A DNA stretch of 7,302 bases. Origin: a virus (lineage: Duplodnaviria > Heunggongvirae > Uroviricota > Caudoviricetes). Where the stretch lies: IMG/VR virus record IMGVR_UViG_2585427776_000005; one strand, 5' to 3'. This document shows, in pieces, positions 1 through 7,302 of the stretch (its first letter is position 1; each line of letters starts with the position of its first letter). Both the position numbers and the translations under genes were made by a program. Under the pieces are notes generated by a model, which was given only the letters and a program-made list of their open reading frames with translations, ran no database searches and was not told the DNA's origin.

Positions 1-1923
1 AAATGGCCCGAAATTCAGGCAGAGATGCGCATCTGGAAAAAACGTCGCGAAGGTGAACGCAAGGAAACCGGAAAATACACGTCTGTTGTTGATCTCGCCC
101 GCGCCAGAGCCAATCAACAGTACACTGAAAATTCAACAGGAAAAATCAGCCCGGTCATTGCTGCCATTCATCGCGAATACAAGCAGACATGGAAAACACT
201 GGATGACGAACTGGCCTACGCTCTCTGGCCTGGTGATGTGGATGCCGGAAACATTGACGGCAGCATCCATCGCTGGGCAAAAAAAGAAGTTATCGACAAC
301 GACCGCGAAGACTGGAAGCGTATCTCGGCATCAATGCGCAAACAGCCTGATGCCCTTCGCTACGACCGCCAAACTATTTTTGGCCTTGTCCGTGAGCGTC
401 CGATCGACATTCACAAAGATCCCGTAGCACTGAACAAATATATCTGCGAATACCTGACGACAAAGGGCGTGTTTGAGAATGAAGAAACAGACCTGGGCAC
501 TGTTGATGTTCTCCAGTCATCAGAAACACAAACTGATGCAGTGGAAACTGAGGTATCTGATATCCCAAAAAATGAAACCGCGCCGGAAGCTGAACCATCT
601 GTAGAGCGTGAGGGGCCGTTCTATTTCCTCTTCGCAGATAAGGACGGAGAAAAATACGGTCGCGCAAACAAACTCTCTGGTCTGGATAAGGCACTGGCTG
701 CTGGCGCCACTGAAATCACAAAAGAAGAATATTTTGCCCGAAAAAATGGCACATACACGGGCTTACCGCAAAATGTAGATACCGCTGAAGATTCAGAACA
801 ACCAGAGCCGATAAAAGTTACCGCTGACGAAGTAAACAAAATTATGCAGGCAGCCAATATCAGCCAGCCTGACGCCGATAAGTTGCTTGCTGCATCACGT
901 GGTGAATTTGTTGAAGGGATTAGTGACCCGAATGATCCGAAATGGGTTAAGGGGCTCCAGACCCGCGATTCTGTGAACCAGAACCAGCATGAATCGGAAC
1001 GGAACTACCAAAAAGCGGAACAAAACAGTCCAAATGCGTTACAAAACGAGCCAGAAACGAAACAGCCTGAACCAGTAGCGCAACAGGAAGTGGAAAAAGT
1101 CTGCACCGCCTGCGGTCAGACCGGCGGCGGCAACTGCCCTGATTGTGGCGCGGTGATGGGCGACGCAACATACCAAGAAACATTCGATGAAGAGTATCAG
1201 GTTGAAGTTCAGGAAGATGATCCGGAGGAAATGGAAGGCGCTGAACATCCACACAAGGAGAACACTGGCGGCAATCAGCATCACAATAGCGATAATGAAA
1301 CTGGCGAGACGGCAGATCACCCAATTAAGGTGAACGGTCATCACGAAATCACATCCACCAGCAGGACGTGTGACCATCTAATGATCGACCTTGAAACCAT
1401 GGGAAAAAATCCTGATGCCCCGATCATCTCAATAGGTGCAATATTTTTCGATCCGCAAACCGGAGATATGGGACCGGAATTTAGTAAGACTATCGATCTG
1501 GAAACTGCTGGCGGAGTCATTGATCGGGACACCATTAAATGGTGGCTTAAGCAATCACGCGAAGCGCAATCTGCCATTATGACCGATGAAATCCCGTTAG
1601 ATGATGCACTGTTACAATTGCGAGAATTTATCGACGAAAACTCCGGTGAATTTTTTGTTCAGGTTTGGGGAAATGGAGCCAACTTCGACAACACGATTTT
1701 GCGCCGTTCATACGAACGGCAGGGGATCCCCTGCCCGTGGCGTTACTACAACGATCGCGATGTACGCACAATCGTTGAGCTGGGGAAAGCCATAGACTTC
1801 GATGCCAGAACGGCTATTCCATTCGAAGGTGAGCGCCATAATGCACTTGATGACGCCCGTTACCAGGCAAAATACGTTTCAGTTATCTGGCAAAAACTGA
1901 TCCCGAGTCAGGCTGATTCTTAA
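1..1923 (+). CDS. Prophage RecE-family exonuclease (exodeoxyribonuclease VIII-like), 5'-partial, with central C4 zinc ribbon and C-terminal DEDDh (DnaQ-like) 3'-5' exonuclease domain
   Basis: Reading frame is open from base 1 (no stop upstream of the ATG at 25), so the true start is probably outside the window; stop TAA at 1921-1923. Residues encoded at 877-969 (DKLLAASRGEFVEGISDPNDPKWVKGLQTRD) match a segment I recall from Rac RecE. Residues from 1381 onward carry DEDDh motifs: D-L-E-T (exo I), GNGANFD (exo II), H-N-A-L-D-D (exo III). CxxC-x9-CxxC at 1102-1146. Confidence 0.8.
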   Translation, partial: KWPEIQAEMRIWKKRREGERKETGKYTSVVDLARARANQQYTENSTGKISPVIAAIHREYKQTWKTLDDELAYALWPGDVDAGNIDGSIHRWAKKEVIDNDREDWKRISASMRKQPDALRYDRQTIFGLVRERPIDIHKDPVALNKYICEYLTTKGVFENEETDLGTVDVLQSSETQTDAVETEVSDIPKNETAPEAEPSVEREGPFYFLFADKDGEKYGRANKLSGLDKALAAGATEITKEEYFARKNGTYTGLPQNVDTAEDSEQPEPIKVTADEVNKIMQAANISQPDADKLLAASRGEFVEGISDPNDPKWVKGLQTRDSVNQNQHESERNYQKAEQNSPNALQNEPETKQPEPVAQQEVEKVCTACGQTGGGNCPDCGAVMGDATYQETFDEEYQVEVQEDDPEEMEGAEHPHKENTGGNQHHNSDNETGETADHPIKVNGHHEITSTSRTCDHLMIDLETMGKNPDAPIISIGAIFFDPQTGDMGPEFSKTIDLETAGGVIDRDTIKWWLKQSREAQSAIMTDEIPLDDALLQLREFIDENSGEFFVQVWGNGANFDNTILRRSYERQGIPCPWRYYNDRDVRTIVELGKAIDFDARTAIPFEGERHNALDDARYQAKYVSVIWQKLIPSQADS

Positions 1924-1934
1924 TGTTCAACTGT

Positions 1935-1966
1935 CGCCGGTTGTGACTGGTATTCTGCAACCGGCG
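1935..1966 (+). repeat. Perfect inverted repeat (9-bp arms CGCCGGTTG / CAACCGGCG, 14-nt spacer) in the exonuclease-xis intergenic region; possible hairpin or protein-binding palindrome
   Basis: Arms at 1935-1943 and 1958-1966 are exact reverse complements. No T-tract follows, so it is not a canonical intrinsic terminator. Confidence 0.35.
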
Positions 1967-1995
1967 CTCGTCTGATGTAAGAGATAAAGAAATCG

Positions 1996-2247
1996 ATGAG
2001 CGAAGTAATCATGATTGTCTCTCCCGGCAAATGGGTATCCGAAGAGCAGTTAATTGCGCTGAAAGGAATAAAAAAAGGTACGTTAAAAAAGGCCCGGGAA
2101 AAATCGTTTATGGAAGGAAGGGAATATAAGCATGTCGCTCATGACGGTATGCCATGGGATAACAGTCCATGCTTTTACAACCTGGAAGAAATTGATCGCT
2201 GGATTGAGCGCCAGGCATCAGCGAGACCAAGACGTCATCTTACTTGA
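1996..2247 (+). CDS. xis: Excisionase-like small DNA-binding protein (Xis-like), 83 aa
   Basis: Small basic ORF immediately upstream of and co-oriented with the integrase; contains a GREY motif like the DGREY of lambda Xis. Purine-rich stretch AAGAGATAAAGAAA precedes the ATG at 1996; an alternative in-frame ATG lies at 2011. Stop TGA at 2245-2247. Confidence 0.55.
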   Translation: MSEVIMIVSPGKWVSEEQLIALKGIKKGTLKKAREKSFMEGREYKHVAHDGMPWDNSPCFYNLEEIDRWIERQASARPRRHLT

Positions 2248-2281
2248 CTAAAAGCCACACTAACTAATGAGAGAAGTTGAA

Positions 2282-3562
2282 ATGAAATATCCGACAGGCG
2301 TGGAAAACCATGGAGGGAAATTACGTATCTGGTTTGTTTATAAAGACGTAAGAGTCAGGGAAAATCTGGGGGTTCCTGACACAGCAAAAAACAGGCGCGT
2401 TGCAGGTGAACTACGCTCCTCTGTTTGTTACGCAATAAAAACTGGTGTTTTCGACTATGCAAAACAGTTTCCCTCCTCACGCAATCTGGAAAAATTTGGT
2501 GAGGCCCGACAAGATTTAACCATAAAAGAACTGGCTGAAAAATTTCTGGCACTGAAAGAAACTGAAGTCGCCAAAACATCACTCAACACATACCGTGCCG
2601 TCATCAAAAATATCCTGAGCATAATCGGTGAAAAAAATCTTGCCTCATCGATTAATAAAGAAAAATTACTGGAGGTTCGTAAAGAGTTACTGACTGGATA
2701 CCAGATCCCCAAAAGTAACTATATTGTTACACAACCAGGGAGATCGGCTGTAACTGTAAATAATTACATGACAAATCTTAACGCCGTGTTCCAGTTTGGT
2801 GTTGATAACGGTTACCTGGCAGATAATCCGTTTAAGGGGATCTCGCCATTAAAGGAATCAAGAACCATTCCGGATCCTCTTTCGCGGGAAGAATTTATCC
2901 GTCTTATCGATGCGTGCAGAAATCAGCAAGCAAAAAATTTATGGTGTGTTTCTGTTTATACTGGAGTTCGCCCTGGTGAGCTGTGTGCACTTGGATGGGA
3001 GGACATAGATCTGAAAAATGGAACAATGATGATCAGGAGAAATTTAGCAAAAGACCGTTTCACGGTACCAAAAACACAGGCGGGAACCAATCGGGGCATT
3101 CATCTTATTAAGCCAGCAATCGACGCTCTCCGGAGTCAGATGACATTAACGAGACTGAGCAAAGAGCATATCATTGATGTTCACCTCAGAGAGTATGGCA
3201 GAACAGAAAAACAAAAATGCACCTTTGTTTTTCAACCTGAAGTGTCAGCGAGAGTAAAAAATTATGGTGACCATTTTACCGTTGACTCAATAAGGCAGAT
3301 GTGGGACGCAGCGATAAAACGTGCCGGACTCCGCCATCGAAAATCATATCAGTCGAGACATACTTATGCCTGCTGGTCGCTGACAGCTGGTGCTAACCCG
3401 GCATTTATAGCAAACCAGATGGGCCATGCAGATGCGCAAATGGTATTTCAGGTATACGGAAAATGGATGTCTGAAAACAATAATGCACAGGTAGCTTTGT
3501 TAAATACACAGTTAAGCGAGTTTGCCCCAACCATGCCCCATAACGAAGCAATGAAAAATTAA
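2282..3562 (+). CDS. int: Phage integrase, tyrosine recombinase (lambda Int family; positional counterpart of E. coli K-12 Qin intQ, here apparently intact)
   Basis: 426-aa ORF. C-terminal catalytic region has TGVRPGELCALGWEDIDL (box I Arg), SRHTYACW (box II) and GHADAQMVFQVY, which has the same His-to-Tyr spacing as lambda Int (GH + 9 residues + Y). Start placed at the ATG at 2282 (MKYPTGVE..., preceded by GAGAGAAG) rather than the track's ATG at 2267; both are possible. Stop TAA at 3560-3562. Confidence 0.9.
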   Translation: MKYPTGVENHGGKLRIWFVYKDVRVRENLGVPDTAKNRRVAGELRSSVCYAIKTGVFDYAKQFPSSRNLEKFGEARQDLTIKELAEKFLALKETEVAKTSLNTYRAVIKNILSIIGEKNLASSINKEKLLEVRKELLTGYQIPKSNYIVTQPGRSAVTVNNYMTNLNAVFQFGVDNGYLADNPFKGISPLKESRTIPDPLSREEFIRLIDACRNQQAKNLWCVSVYTGVRPGELCALGWEDIDLKNGTMMIRRNLAKDRFTVPKTQAGTNRGIHLIKPAIDALRSQMTLTRLSKEHIIDVHLREYGRTEKQKCTFVFQPEVSARVKNYGDHFTVDSIRQMWDAAIKRAGLRHRKSYQSRHTYACWSLTAGANPAFIANQMGHADAQMVFQVYGKWMSENNNAQVALLNTQLSEFAPTMPHNEAMKN

Positions 3563-3749
3563 TTTAATATTTATCAAATAGTTAACACGCATGACTCTTG
3601 AAATCCATAAATTCAAGCGCAGTGCCCAGCCATCCCGATACTGCTGCTTTCACCAAATCCTTAGTGCTTCTTTCGTGTTTTTCTATTGTCATAATGGTTA
3701 TCTCTAAAAAAGAGGTAAGATGCGTACTACTTACTCGCCGTTATTGGTA
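3563..3749. other. Prophage/chromosome junction region; candidate attachment-site (attL or attR) location
   Basis: AT-rich non-coding stretch between the integrase stop and the 3' end of the core gene rspB. Lambdoid integrases normally sit next to att. The core sequence cannot be defined without the other prophage end. Confidence 0.35.
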
Positions 3750-4769
3750 TTATTCAGAAAAAGTGAGTAAGACTTTGCAGCAATGTTTTTGATCCTGTTC
3801 AAATAAACTAATGGCATCAGCAACATGCTGGAAATCAAACGTATGGGTAATTAATTTTTCTGGTTTAATTAACCCTTTACTTAACCAGTCGATAACGATC
3901 GGGAATTTATTTGCATTTAAGCGTGAAGAGAAAATAGAGAGTTCTTTTCCGGTAATTCCTTGCTGAATCACTTCAGACGGTTCACTGGAGAACCCCATCA
4001 ATACAATACGTGCCGCTGGAGAAGCCAGCGTTACGGCCTCTTTCAGGATAGAAGGATGACAAGCCGCATCGATAATTAATGTCGGCTTGATGCCTTTTTC
4101 AGTGAAAATCTCGCCAAGCGGTGTCTGGCTGTTATTAATCGCCCAGTCAGCCCCGCTCTCTTTCGCTTTTTCCAGTCGTTCATCAATGCGATCGGCAACA
4201 ATCACATTTTTAACGTTATAGACGCCTTTTAATACCTGAACGATCGTCAGGCCGATTGGACCGGCACCATAAACCAGAACGGTATCATTTTCAGTCGGTT
4301 GACCATGTCCGGTTACGTTAGCCGCAATGGTAAAAGGTTCGATCATTACCGCATATTGATCGGCCACTGCTTCAGGAATTTTCCACGCATTTTTTGCCGG
4401 AACCACGGCATATTCACTGAAACCACCGTCAGCGTGCACACCTAATACAGCCAGTGTCGTACAAACGTTCGGTTTACCTATAGAGCACGGATAGCAATGC
4501 CCACAGCTGACCACCGGATCGACAGCAACACGTTCACCGACTCTGGCGCTTTCCACGCCTTCACCCACTGCATCAATGACGCCAAAGAATTCATGACCAA
4601 TGACGCGCGGATATTTCGCAAAAGGATTATGCCCACGATAAATATGGCTATCTGAACCACAAATTCCGGCAAGTTTCACTTTTACTCGTACTTCACCCGC
4701 TGACGGGGTGGGTATTTCACGTTCGACAATCGCCAGTTGATTCGGTTTTTCAATTAATATGCTTTTCAT
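3750..4769 (-). CDS. rspB: Starvation-sensing protein RspB, zinc-dependent medium-chain alcohol dehydrogenase family
   Basis: Translation MKSILIEKPNQLAIVEREIPTPSAGEVRVKVKLAGICGSDSHIYRGH...KVLLTFSE is recognised as E. coli RspB (339 aa). It has a GHE zinc-ligand motif, a CGHCYPC structural-zinc motif and a GAGPIG NAD(P)-binding motif. Start ATG at 4767-4769 is preceded by GGAG; the track's upstream GTG extension is not needed. Confidence 0.95.
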   Translation of the reverse strand: MKSILIEKPNQLAIVEREIPTPSAGEVRVKVKLAGICGSDSHIYRGHNPFAKYPRVIGHEFFGVIDAVGEGVESARVGERVAVDPVVSCGHCYPCSIGKPNVCTTLAVLGVHADGGFSEYAVVPAKNAWKIPEAVADQYAVMIEPFTIAANVTGHGQPTENDTVLVYGAGPIGLTIVQVLKGVYNVKNVIVADRIDERLEKAKESGADWAINNSQTPLGEIFTEKGIKPTLIIDAACHPSILKEAVTLASPAARIVLMGFSSEPSEVIQQGITGKELSIFSSRLNANKFPIVIDWLSKGLIKPEKLITHTFDFQHVADAISLFEQDQKHCCKVLLTFSE

Positions 4770-4780
4770 TATCTTACTCC

Positions 4781-5995
4781 TTACCAGTTCCACAGCGTGC
4801 CATCTTCCAGACGTGCGACTGGTAGATAAGCAGGTTCATAGGGATATTTCGCCGCCAGCTTTTCATCGAATTCGATACCAAGACCCGGTTTGTCTCCCGG
4901 ATGCATATAGCCGTTATCGAAAGTCCAGTTGTGCGGGAAGACTTCGAGCATTTGTTCGGAATAACCCATGTATTCCTGGACACCGAAATTGGGGACCCAC
5001 AGATCAAAGTGCAGCGCCGCAGCCATGCAGACTGGTGACAAATCGGAAGGACCGTGTGAGCCAGTACGTACCTGATACAGCGAAGCAAAATCGGCAATCC
5101 GGCGCATACCGGTAATTCCGCCTGCATGGGTCAGCGTGGTGCGGATATAATCGATGAGTTGCTCTTCAATCAGTTGTTTGCAGTCCCAGATGCTGTTGAA
5201 GACTTCACCCACTGCGATGGGTGTGACGGTATGTTGGCGAATGAGACGGAAGCATTCCTGGTTTTCCGCAGGCGTCGGGTCTTCCATCCAGAACATGCGA
5301 TAATCTTCAATGCTTTTACCAAAGCGCGCCGCTTCAATAGGCGTTAAGCGATGGTGCATGTCATGCAGCAAATGTTCATTAAAACCAAACTTGTTACGTA
5401 CCGCGTCAAACAATTTCGGCATGAAATCGAGGTATTTCTCCGTCGACCACAGCTGCTCTTCCGGCCACTGTCCTTTGGTTGCGGGTTCATAAGCCAGACC
5501 TTTACCTTTCGACATGCCGTAGGTGGTTTTCATACCAGGGATTCCGCACTGCACGCGGATGGCTTTGAATCCAAGCTCTTGATGACGGGCATAATCATCC
5601 AGAGCTTCATCAATACTGTGACCGGTGGTATGGCAATAAACCATCACCCCTTCACGAGACGCGCCGCCGAGTAACTGGTAAAGCGGCATGTTGGCAGCTT
5701 TGGCTTTAATATCCCACAGCGCCATATCAACCGCTGAAATGGCCGACATCGTAACCGGACCGCGACGCCAGTAAGCACCTTTATAGAAAAACTGCCAGAT
5801 ATCTTCGATACGGTGCGCATCGCGACCAATAAGCTGCGGACAAAGGTGATCCTGCAAATAAGAGGCCACGGAAAGCTCACGTCCATTGAGGGTGGCATCC
5901 CCAAGGCCCGTAATACCGTCCTCAGTGGTGATTTTTAATGTGACGAAATTACGCCCCGGACAGGTAACAAAAACTTCAGCCTTTACGATCTTCAT
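4781..5995 (-). CDS. rspA: Starvation-sensing protein RspA, enolase-superfamily mannonate dehydratase-like enzyme
   Basis: Translation [40 protein letters not shown]...[11 protein letters not shown] is recognised as E. coli RspA (404 aa). Start ATG at 5993-5995 is preceded by AAGGA at about 7 nt. Stop TAA at 4781-4783 lies 11 nt upstream of the rspB start, so the two genes form an operon. Confidence 0.95.
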
Positions 5996-6200
5996 GTTCG
6001 ATTCCTTGCATCGCTTGTCGTGATGCATGAAATCTACGCAACTGAGCTACTACCATACAAGTATAAAGATCGAAAAAAGCCGGAGTGATCACAAAAAAAG
6101 GCGTATATTTGCGCTGTGAATGGTTGACAAAAGATGAAATAGAATACCTTTTGTCAGCTGACACTTCCTCTTATCTTATTGATAAAATGGATTTATGTTC
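5996..6200 (-). promoter_or_regulatory. rspA 5' UTR and promoter region (ynfA-rspA intergenic)
   Basis: Non-coding interval upstream of rspA on the - strand. Candidate sigma70-like elements on the - strand: -35 TTGTCA (complement of 6125-6130), 17-bp spacer, -10 TATACG (complement of 6102-6107); also a TATACT hexamer (complement of 6060-6065). Compressed palindrome GTGATCAC at 6085-6092. The transcription start site cannot be determined from sequence. Confidence 0.4.
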
Positions 6201-6512
6201 CTACGTGCGCCCCCAGCCCGCAACAATGATCAACATGCCGCAAAGCGCAATCAACGCACCCGTCCAGTCATAAAGAGTCAGTTTCACGCCATCCACAACG
6301 CGCAGCCACATCAACGCCGTGCAGACATAAACGCCACCATAAGCCGCGTAAACACGCCCACTCGCCGCTGGATGCAACGTTAACAACCAGACAAACAGCG
6401 CCAGTGAAATCCCCGCCGGAAGCAACAGCCAGATACTGGCGTTTCGTTTTAACCACAACCAGGGCAGAAAGCATCCAATAATTTCACACAGCGCAGTAGC
6501 AAAAAATAGTAA
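6201..6512 (-). pseudogene. ynfA: ynfA (UPF0060 family small inner-membrane protein), 5'-truncated: codons 6-108 retained, first 5 codons separated by an IS insertion
   Basis: Translation [44 protein letters not shown]...IIVAGWGRT matches E. coli YnfA from residue 6. Homology ends exactly at the IS left terminus (6512/6513). Stop TAG at 6201-6203 (complement). The track ORF only extends further through a TTG start inside the IS end. Confidence 0.8.
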
Positions 6513-6566
6513 TGAACCGCCCCGGGAATCCTGGAGACTAAACTTCCTGAGAAAGAGGTAAACAGG

Positions 6567-6893
6567 ATGACTAAAAATACTCGTTTTTCCCCCGAAGTCC
6601 GTCAACGGGCAGTCCGTATGGTTCTGGAAAGTCAGAGCGAATATGACTCACAATGGGCGACAATTTGTTCCATTGCTCCAAAGATTGGCTGTACGCCGGA
6701 GACTCTGCGTGTCTGGGTTCGCCAGCATGAGCGGGATACCGGGGGCGGTGATGGAGGGCTCACCACCGCTGAACGTCAGCGTCTGAAAGAGCTGGAACGT
6801 GAAAATCGTGAACTGCGCCGCAGTAACGATATCCTTCGCCAGGCTTCCGCTTATTTTGCGAAGGCGGAGTTCGACCGCCTCTGGAAAAAATGA
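6567..6893 (+). CDS. IS629 OrfA (IS3-family transposase N-terminal HTH/leucine-zipper subunit), 108 aa
   Basis: Translation [61 protein letters not shown]...[36 protein letters not shown] matches IS629/IS1203 OrfA. ATG at 6567 is preceded by GAGAAAGAGG; stop TGA at 6891-6893. Confidence 0.9.
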
Positions 6894-7302
6894 TGCCACT
6901 GCTGGATAAGCTGCGTGAGTAGTACGGGGTCGGACCGCTATGCAGCGAACTGCATATTGCCCCGTCAACGTATTACCACTGTCAGCAACAGCGACATCAT
7001 CCGGATAAACGCAGTGCCCGTGCGCAGCGCGATGACTGGCTGAAGAAAGAGATACAGCGCGTATACGATGAAAATCACAAGGTATACGGTGTGCGTAAAG
7101 TCTGGCGTCAGTTGTTACGGGAAGGTATCAGAGTGGCCAGATGCACTGTGGCACGTCTCATGGCGGTTATGGGACTTGCCGGTGTTCTCCGGGGTAAAAA
7201 GGTCCGTACGACCATCAGCCGGAAAGCCGTTGTCGCAGGCGACCGCGTAAACCGTCAGTTCGTGGCAGAACGACCTGACCAGCTGTGGGTGGCTGATTTT
7301 AC
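6890..7302 (+). pseudogene. IS629 orfB (DDE transposase catalytic subunit), 3'-partial, interrupted by an in-frame TAG at 6920-6922
   Basis: The -1 frame relative to orfA reads ATG ATG CCA CTG CTG GAT AAG CTG CGT GAG TAG ([10 protein letters not shown]), then continues without further stops as YGVGPLCSELHIAPSTYYHCQQQRHHPDKRSARAQRDDWLKKEIQRVYDENHKVYGVRKVWRQLL...DQLWVADF. That is IS629 OrfB-like sequence, in which I recall Gln (CAG) at the stop position. Confidence 0.65.

Follow-up and report, generated by a model that had tools for sequence, protein, structure and literature searches.

The 7,302-nt window analysed in this study is a whole draft contig that stops 790 nt into an IS629-type insertion sequence (IS), which abuts ynfA exactly between codons 5 and 6. 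Ordinary disruption by this element is the preferred explanation, with a probability of about 0.8: a recent event would have left ynfA null or strongly hypomorphic, and the reading frame that runs from the IS into the gene would be incidental. The site is a new one for a well-known element, real but routine, and adds one more IS629-type inactivation of a backbone gene, here a minor SMR-like efflux gene, with little import beyond strain-level annotation. Feature coordinates are collected in Table 1.

Table 1. Features of the 7,302-nt window, with positions counted from its first nucleotide.
Feature	Position	Strand	Basis or remark
recE-like exonuclease	to 1923	+	Lambdoid (Rac/Qin-like) prophage end
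Excisionase	1996-2247	+	Prophage end
Integrase	2282-3562	+	Prophage end
rspB	3750-4769	-	
rspA	4781-5995	-	
ynfA remnant, codons 6-108 and stop codon	6201-6512	-	Alignment to strain 582 ynfA; NF002586
ORF of 134 codons, TTG start at 6603-6605	6201-6605	-	ORF list; translation as quoted in the initial annotation
Promoter-like TTCACA-16-AATAGT within the ynfA flank, directed at the IS left end/orfA; status uncertain	6483-6510	+	Consensus scan
IS629-type (IS3 family) element, left 790 nt of 1310 bp	6513-7302	+	788/790 identity; contig ends inside the element
IS left end: terminal inverted repeat TGAACCGCCCCGGGAATCCTGGAG... and orfA leader with GAGG Shine-Dalgarno	6513-6566	+	Invariant in 6 copies
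IS-derived 31 codons (TTG + 30), fused in frame to ynfA codon 6	6513-6605	-	ORF list, frame analysis
IS orfA, 108 aa, HTH DNA-binding part of the transposase	6567-6893	+	ORF list; NCBIfam transpos_IS3 positions 1-86
ATT 6578 with SD-like GGGGGA	6578-6598	-	Hybrid frame, 125-aa product
ALIL pseudoknot, stimulator of the programmed -1 frameshift orfA/orfB	6848-6964	+	Rfam RF01497, 120.1 bits
Nonsense codon TAG, orfB/OrfAB frame; other copies have CAG	6920-6922	+	C>T at 6920

Break point and hybrid reading frame

Residues 6-108 of YnfA are encoded by the remnant with zero amino-acid changes, the 108-aa protein being identical in 13 of 13 intact copies from the fetched loci, where copies were detected by a start-region motif. 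At the DNA level, the window is identical to the ynfA of strain 582 up to 6512, except for one synonymous difference, and unrelated to it from 6513 onwards. DNA alignment and residue identity thus agree with the initial annotation, which had ynfA homology running exactly from residue 6 and ending at 6512/6513. The comparison with strains carrying an uninterrupted ynfA, which had been proposed as a check, confirmed both the homology break and the native start codons: the intact gene of strain 582 begins ATG ATT AAA ACA ACG TTA CTA TTT TTT (MIKTTLLFF), and the N-terminus MIKTT, given in the initial annotation, was right. The junction reads GCAAAAAATAGTAA followed directly by TGAACCGCCCC. The earlier statement that the native expression signals of ynfA had been displaced holds to the extent that ATG-ATT-AAA-ACA-ACG, the ribosome-binding site and the promoter are all absent from the gene-proximal side of the remnant.

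On the other side of the break, the left inverted repeat TGAACCGCCCCGGG... begins at 6513 and is the same terminal repeat as that of IS629-type elements, the criterion being a repeat that begins TG...(CA). The first base of the IS is fixed at 6513 by five other copies in other genomes, which have TGAACCGCCCCGGGAATCC... from this position and unrelated flanks upstream of it; the terminus TGAACCGCCCC is common to 6 copies with unrelated flanks, in keeping with the claim that an IS629-type element had come to lie immediately after codon 5. An IS end to the left of 6513 was considered, as BLAST matches began 8-13 nt earlier, and was rejected: alignment resolved these extensions into partial chance matches, which arise because the flanks are A-rich (6470-6512 and the flanks of other copies). 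Several insertion sites of the IS are A-rich just before the left end (AAAAAATAGTAA, ACAAAATGTAC, AAAAAGAATCAGAAG), which hints at a loose regional insertion preference.

The minus-strand frame of the remnant stays open across the break for 31 more codons, up to the TTG at 6603-6605, as both the ORF list and the frame analysis indicate, and the IS-ynfA hybrid frame described at the outset is therefore present, with 134 codons in all. Its residues 32-134 correspond to native YnfA residues 6-108. In antisense, the IS-derived codons overlap the left end of the element and orfA codons 1-13; the TTG is the sole ATG, GTG or TTG within this part of the frame, and the in-frame stop upstream of it is TGA at 6648-6650. 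The ORF matches the NCBIfam model NF002586 ('YnfA family protein') with 156 bits, above the curated cutoff of 114. The match covers only profile positions 8-107 of 109, the N-terminal positions being replaced by IS-derived residues. Gene callers chose an 85-aa internal start and not the 134-aa frame, and this internal-TTG call is deposited as 'hypothetical protein' from E. coli 5-172-05_S4_C3, 3-105-05_S1_C1 and others; no contig carrying it is longer than 7302 bp, the length of the window. Both this deposited call and the 134-codon ORF are to be read as remnants of one disrupted gene, which should be flagged as a pseudogene.

The IS629-type element

The segment 6513-7302 is identical at 788 of 790 positions to the 1310-bp copies of strains 582, E100341 and VR50, and at 767 of 790 to the PK5 subtype. 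Near-identical full copies measure 1310 bp and end in ...CCCGGGGCGGTTCA, a right end that lies beyond the window. Full-length copies are annotated as IS3 family transposase, identical copies are labelled 'programmed frameshift', and a further near-identical copy bears the annotation 'IS3-like element IS629 family transposase'; the assignment to IS629 denotes identity to these annotated genome copies, not to an ISfinder reference sequence.

The window displays the two-ORF, -1 frameshift layout of the IS3 family and holds the first ~130 codons of orfB, interrupted by the TAG at 6920-6922 and with no DDE domain seen among them. The orfA protein occurs with its exact sequence in more than 1000 contigs and has a Shine-Dalgarno (SD) pairing of -7.1 kcal/mol, and the match of the frameshift-stimulating pseudoknot to RF01497 is full-length (1-117; gathering score 50). 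The transposase genes point away from ynfA, and the end that faces ynfA is the left end (IRL).

Two differences are private to this copy, namely 7233 C>T (Ala>Val) and 6920 C>T, the latter relative to all 6 other copies compared and turning CAG into TAG. The nonsense codon falls just past the frameshift site, inside the pseudoknot, and truncates the transposase. Among 14,560 IS places in 2,318 complete E. coli genomes, a full-length perfect match carrying T6920 was never a record's best place. Provided that T6920 is not a sequencing error, the copy is probably transposase-dead and would move again only with transposase supplied by other copies.

Distribution and age of the junction

The IS-ynfA junction was present in 0 of 5,426 complete E. 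coli genomes, 5,376 of which have an uninterrupted ynfA start region, and just two of the complete genomes (582 and PK5) have an IS629-type copy beside ynfA, at other positions. An exact-pattern search for the near junction gave no match in the species-representative genome collection or in the JGI metagenomes. Positions 1-6512 of the window are 99.98% identical, with one mismatch, to two draft E. coli loci (L013, L014) and 100% identical, over the parts covered, to two others (L011, L018); all four have an intact ynfA followed by ynfB and speG. The rarity of the junction, taken together with near-identical sisters in which ynfA is intact, therefore points to a recent, rare and lineage-specific event. 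The insertion appears to be confined to a small lineage of draft isolates from diarrhoeal studies and, being absent from the 5,426 complete genomes, offers a possible lineage marker for the 5-172-05 and 3-105-05 isolates.

Two other readings of the locus were tried and rejected. A Shigella origin, considered in view of the IS decay of the speG region, disagrees with the deposition of the exact proteins from E. coli and with the 99.98-100% identity of E. coli drafts across the flank. A 74-aa ynfA call, taken as a candidate sign of other 5' disruptions, came from loci without an IS at ynfA and is unrelated to this event.

Origin of the junction and the far side of the IS

The junction most likely arose by simple insertion, the commonest primary event. 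This cannot be assumed, since a target duplication is present in 3 of the 6 IS copies inspected (CTTC, GAAG and TAT), the other three joining unrelated sequences, and since a 3-4 bp duplication was found at only 21 of 47 IS629 sites in four O157:H7 genomes (PMC3271280). These same counts speak for a different origin, in which the junction is one end of an IS-mediated rearrangement, either a deletion beside the element or a recombination of two of its copies, and the first 15 nt of ynfA with the promoter, possibly together with ynfB-speG and more, do not lie at the far IS end. One of the three copies with unrelated sides and no duplication, that of PK5, is joined to hokD/Qin; adjacent deletions associated with IEE/IS629 are documented (PMC9330008); and the contig is also broken on its left, inside the prophage exonuclease gene. 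Against this, the flanking 6.5 kb are essentially identical to sisters with a normal ynfA-ynfB-speG arrangement, which fits a very recent single event, and a rearrangement is considered possible but rather doubtful. That the far IS end holds the 5' end of ynfA is somewhat favoured.

If the insertion was simple, the far end is predicted to show TAA or GTAA and then CGTTGTTTTAATCAT. Together with the IS terminus it would read ...CCCGGGGCGGTTCA-(G)TAA-CGTTGTTTTAATCATC, also written ...GGTTCA-(G)TAA-CGTTGTTTTAATCAT, and it would precede CGTTGTTTTAATCATCTTTGTC. With a 3-bp duplication (TAA, plus strand), the displaced ynfA start would read ATG ATT AAA ACA ACG TTA TGA, a putative six-codon mini-ORF ending at the IS terminus. 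A pattern search for this predicted junction with a gap of 0-8 nt yielded no match in the species-representative genome collection or the JGI metagenomes, and look-ups of the exonuclease and the integrase returned only relatives with an intact ynfA. The corresponding look-up of the 85-aa ynfA call returned one unrelated Logan contig (L003, SRR32315696), in which, at positions 1-40, the 3' end of the integrase gene (plus strand) is joined to ynfA at about codon 47 (minus strand) via a short shared TGCCC. This junction looks inversion-type or artefactual, and unrelated to the IS event.

Expression of the ynfA remnant

In the proposed mechanism, a 1310-bp IS629-type element adjoins ynfA between codons 5 and 6 with its transposase genes directed away; codons 6-108 have lost start codon, ribosome-binding site and promoter and face the IS left end in antisense orientation. 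Any transcript that originates inside the element or past it would include as much as 1.3 kb of antisense IS RNA, most of it untranslated, ahead of ynfA, and Rho-dependent polarity would be expected on the way. The loss of expression signals and the polarity together would thus make the allele of this SMR-like efflux gene null or severely hypomorphic. Beyond the 790 nt of IS seen here, the displaced ynfA promoter, or a different one upstream, may still allow read-through.

A consensus scan at 9/12 found no sigma-70-like promoter on the minus strand of 6100-7302, and none pointing outward on the minus strand of 6513-7302 even at a lenient 8/12, in a type of scan that misses weak or non-sigma-70 promoters and with 520 nt of the IS lying outside the window. 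The plus-strand site at 6483-6510 was the only consensus match in 6100-7302, where 0.9 would be expected by chance. In IS911, the best-described member of the IS3 family, the outward -35 is located in the right inverted repeat, and the -10 in IRL belongs to the junction promoter from which the transposase is expressed (PMC9330008). Literature searches gave nothing specific on an IS629 outward promoter, IS629 antisense RNA or IS insertions in ynfA.

The length of the hybrid frame is accounted for by the phase of the insertion. Read outward on the minus strand, the IS left end gives open stretches of 45, 8 and 29 codons in its three phases, so at least 29 antisense codons are open in two of three phases, with a canonical start codon in phase 0 only. 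A long IS-gene fusion frame is therefore expected in roughly two insertions of three, and on these counts the open hybrid frame is not beyond chance and is best regarded as a mechanical by-product of insertion phase, not a gene.

The initial annotation had left a choice between a silenced ynfA and an N-terminally extended membrane protein made from the hybrid frame. The evidence favours the former, ynfA being most likely silenced, and gives the hybrid neither promoter nor ribosome-binding support. For the extended protein to be made (134 aa, or 125 aa from the ATT at 6578), an outward transcript across the IS left end would be needed, with translation initiating within the element; a variant carrying a cytoplasmic extension of 30 residues would then take the place of the transporter. 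An open frame and its TTG are there, but the SD pairing of TTG 6605 (-3.2 kcal/mol) lies within the background of the same strand (-2.15 +/- 2.4). That of the native ynfA ATG is also weak (-2.9 kcal/mol), and a weak SD alone is therefore no bar to translation. The in-frame ATT has a strong SD-like GGGGGA 9 nt upstream (-8.6 kcal/mol), far stronger than the ribosome-binding site of the TTG, yet ATT is a very inefficient start codon.

As regards the product, all four hydrophobic segments of YnfA are kept, the extension is too little hydrophobic to form another helix, and TM1 is intact, with a glutamate aligning to the essential Glu14 of EmrE. The hybrid, if made, might be insertable in the membrane. 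On the N-terminal side, K3 of the native protein is lost and K7, R20, K21 and R28 are gained. A dual topology of YnfA has been discussed (PMC9295541). For a protein of that kind, the altered charges would, by the positive-inside rule, be expected to bias the orientation, and such a bias could disable an antiparallel dimer. Further against an extended YnfA, the 790 nt of IS contain no outward promoter-like site, transcripts from farther upstream would have to traverse the antisense IS RNA, and the 134-aa product was absent among about 15 billion deposited or predicted proteins. Its production is very unlikely. A reading in which the antisense transcript and the start (TTG 6605 or ATT 6578) both come from the IS left end, giving a YnfA with a positive extension of 25-30 residues that is locked in one orientation, is highly improbable; if true, a transposable element would here have carried out topology engineering as a natural experiment.

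It is scarcely credible that the junction arose in assembly, as a chimeric contig end joining ynfA reads to a collapsed IS repeat. The contig does terminate in a repeat that is multi-copy, in a draft assembled from short reads, and no complete genome has the variants T6920 and T7233 (T6920 as judged by the best place per record). Against this, the first base of the IS inverted repeat coincides exactly with the break, as at a real transposition end, the same truncated-ynfA call has four GenBank accessions, which name three isolates (5-172-05_S4_C3, 3-105-05_S1_C1 and, from the run of accession numbers, 5-172-05_S4_C1), and the contig runs 69 nt past the last private SNP (7233), as would fit an assembler following a real, distinguishable repeat copy while reads allow.

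Comparison with known IS insertions and with YnfA

Disruption of ynfA by an IS629-type insertion, the preferred reading, has close precedents. Gene-disrupting insertions of IS629 are known from the O157:H7 IS629 sites and from O-rough gne::IS629 strains (PMC3271280). The present case shares with IS629/IS1203 insertions in E. coli and Shigella the element itself (99.7% identity over 790 nt), its terminal repeat, the orfA/orfB -1 frameshift and the ALIL pseudoknot, as well as the inactivation of backbone genes with no strict sequence specificity. It differs from them in the private TAG in orfB and in its site, the codon 5/6 position of ynfA having been found neither in any of the 5,426 complete genomes nor in the papers searched.

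The two complete genomes with an IS629-type copy beside ynfA share with this case the IS family and the 0.5-kb neighbourhood; the positions differ and the events are independent. Strain 582 has the IS in the interval from rspA to ynfA (L001 6269-7578) with the 4-bp duplication CTTC and, unlike here, an intact ynfA. In PK5, it lies inside the 3' end of ynfA (L002 6001-7579) and creates a 102-aa YnfA-IS hybrid, annotated as YnfA family protein, in which ten residues are IS-encoded, a by-product like the one described here but at the other end of the gene. With its C-terminus truncated but its native promoter and start retained, the PK5 hybrid is probably expressed, whereas here the N-terminus and the expression signals are lost. 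The other side of the PK5 IS is joined to hokD/Qin, which implies deletion of int-rspB-rspA.

Activation of genes by IS elements is also known, through fusion promoters formed with the IRR -35 of IS3-family elements, through IS10 pOUT and through IS1, IS2 and IS5 (PMC9330008). The present arrangement resembles such cases in that an IS end lies directly upstream of a coding sequence. It differs in that IRL faces ynfA, whereas the outward -35 of IS911 sits in IRR, in that no outward promoter-like site is found, and in that the ynfA start codon, normally kept in activation cases, is lost.

YnfA (UPF0060) is an SMR-like four-helix efflux protein that has been characterised in Shigella flexneri, where ynfA knockouts are viable and more susceptible to several antimicrobials (PMC9295541). 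Compared with the common E. coli YnfA, residues 6-108, including TM1-TM4, are the same here, and the first five residues and the expression signals are missing. From the S. flexneri knockouts, a mild or modest susceptibility phenotype is therefore predicted.

Prophage end on the left of the window

The contig starts inside the recE-like exonuclease gene (1-1923), whose product has 823 aa in relatives; the deposited 632-aa exonuclease begins at the first ATG of the contig. In E. coli 5-172-05_S4_C1, the exonuclease call KEL35117.1 stands five accession numbers before the ynfA call KEL35122.1. Three related loci (L015-L017) show homology to the window from position 317 only, beside an IS3-type orfA-like gene. 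In a further relative (L006), divergence sets in some 30 nt upstream of position 1 of the window, and another (L004) carries TAG at window positions 4-6.
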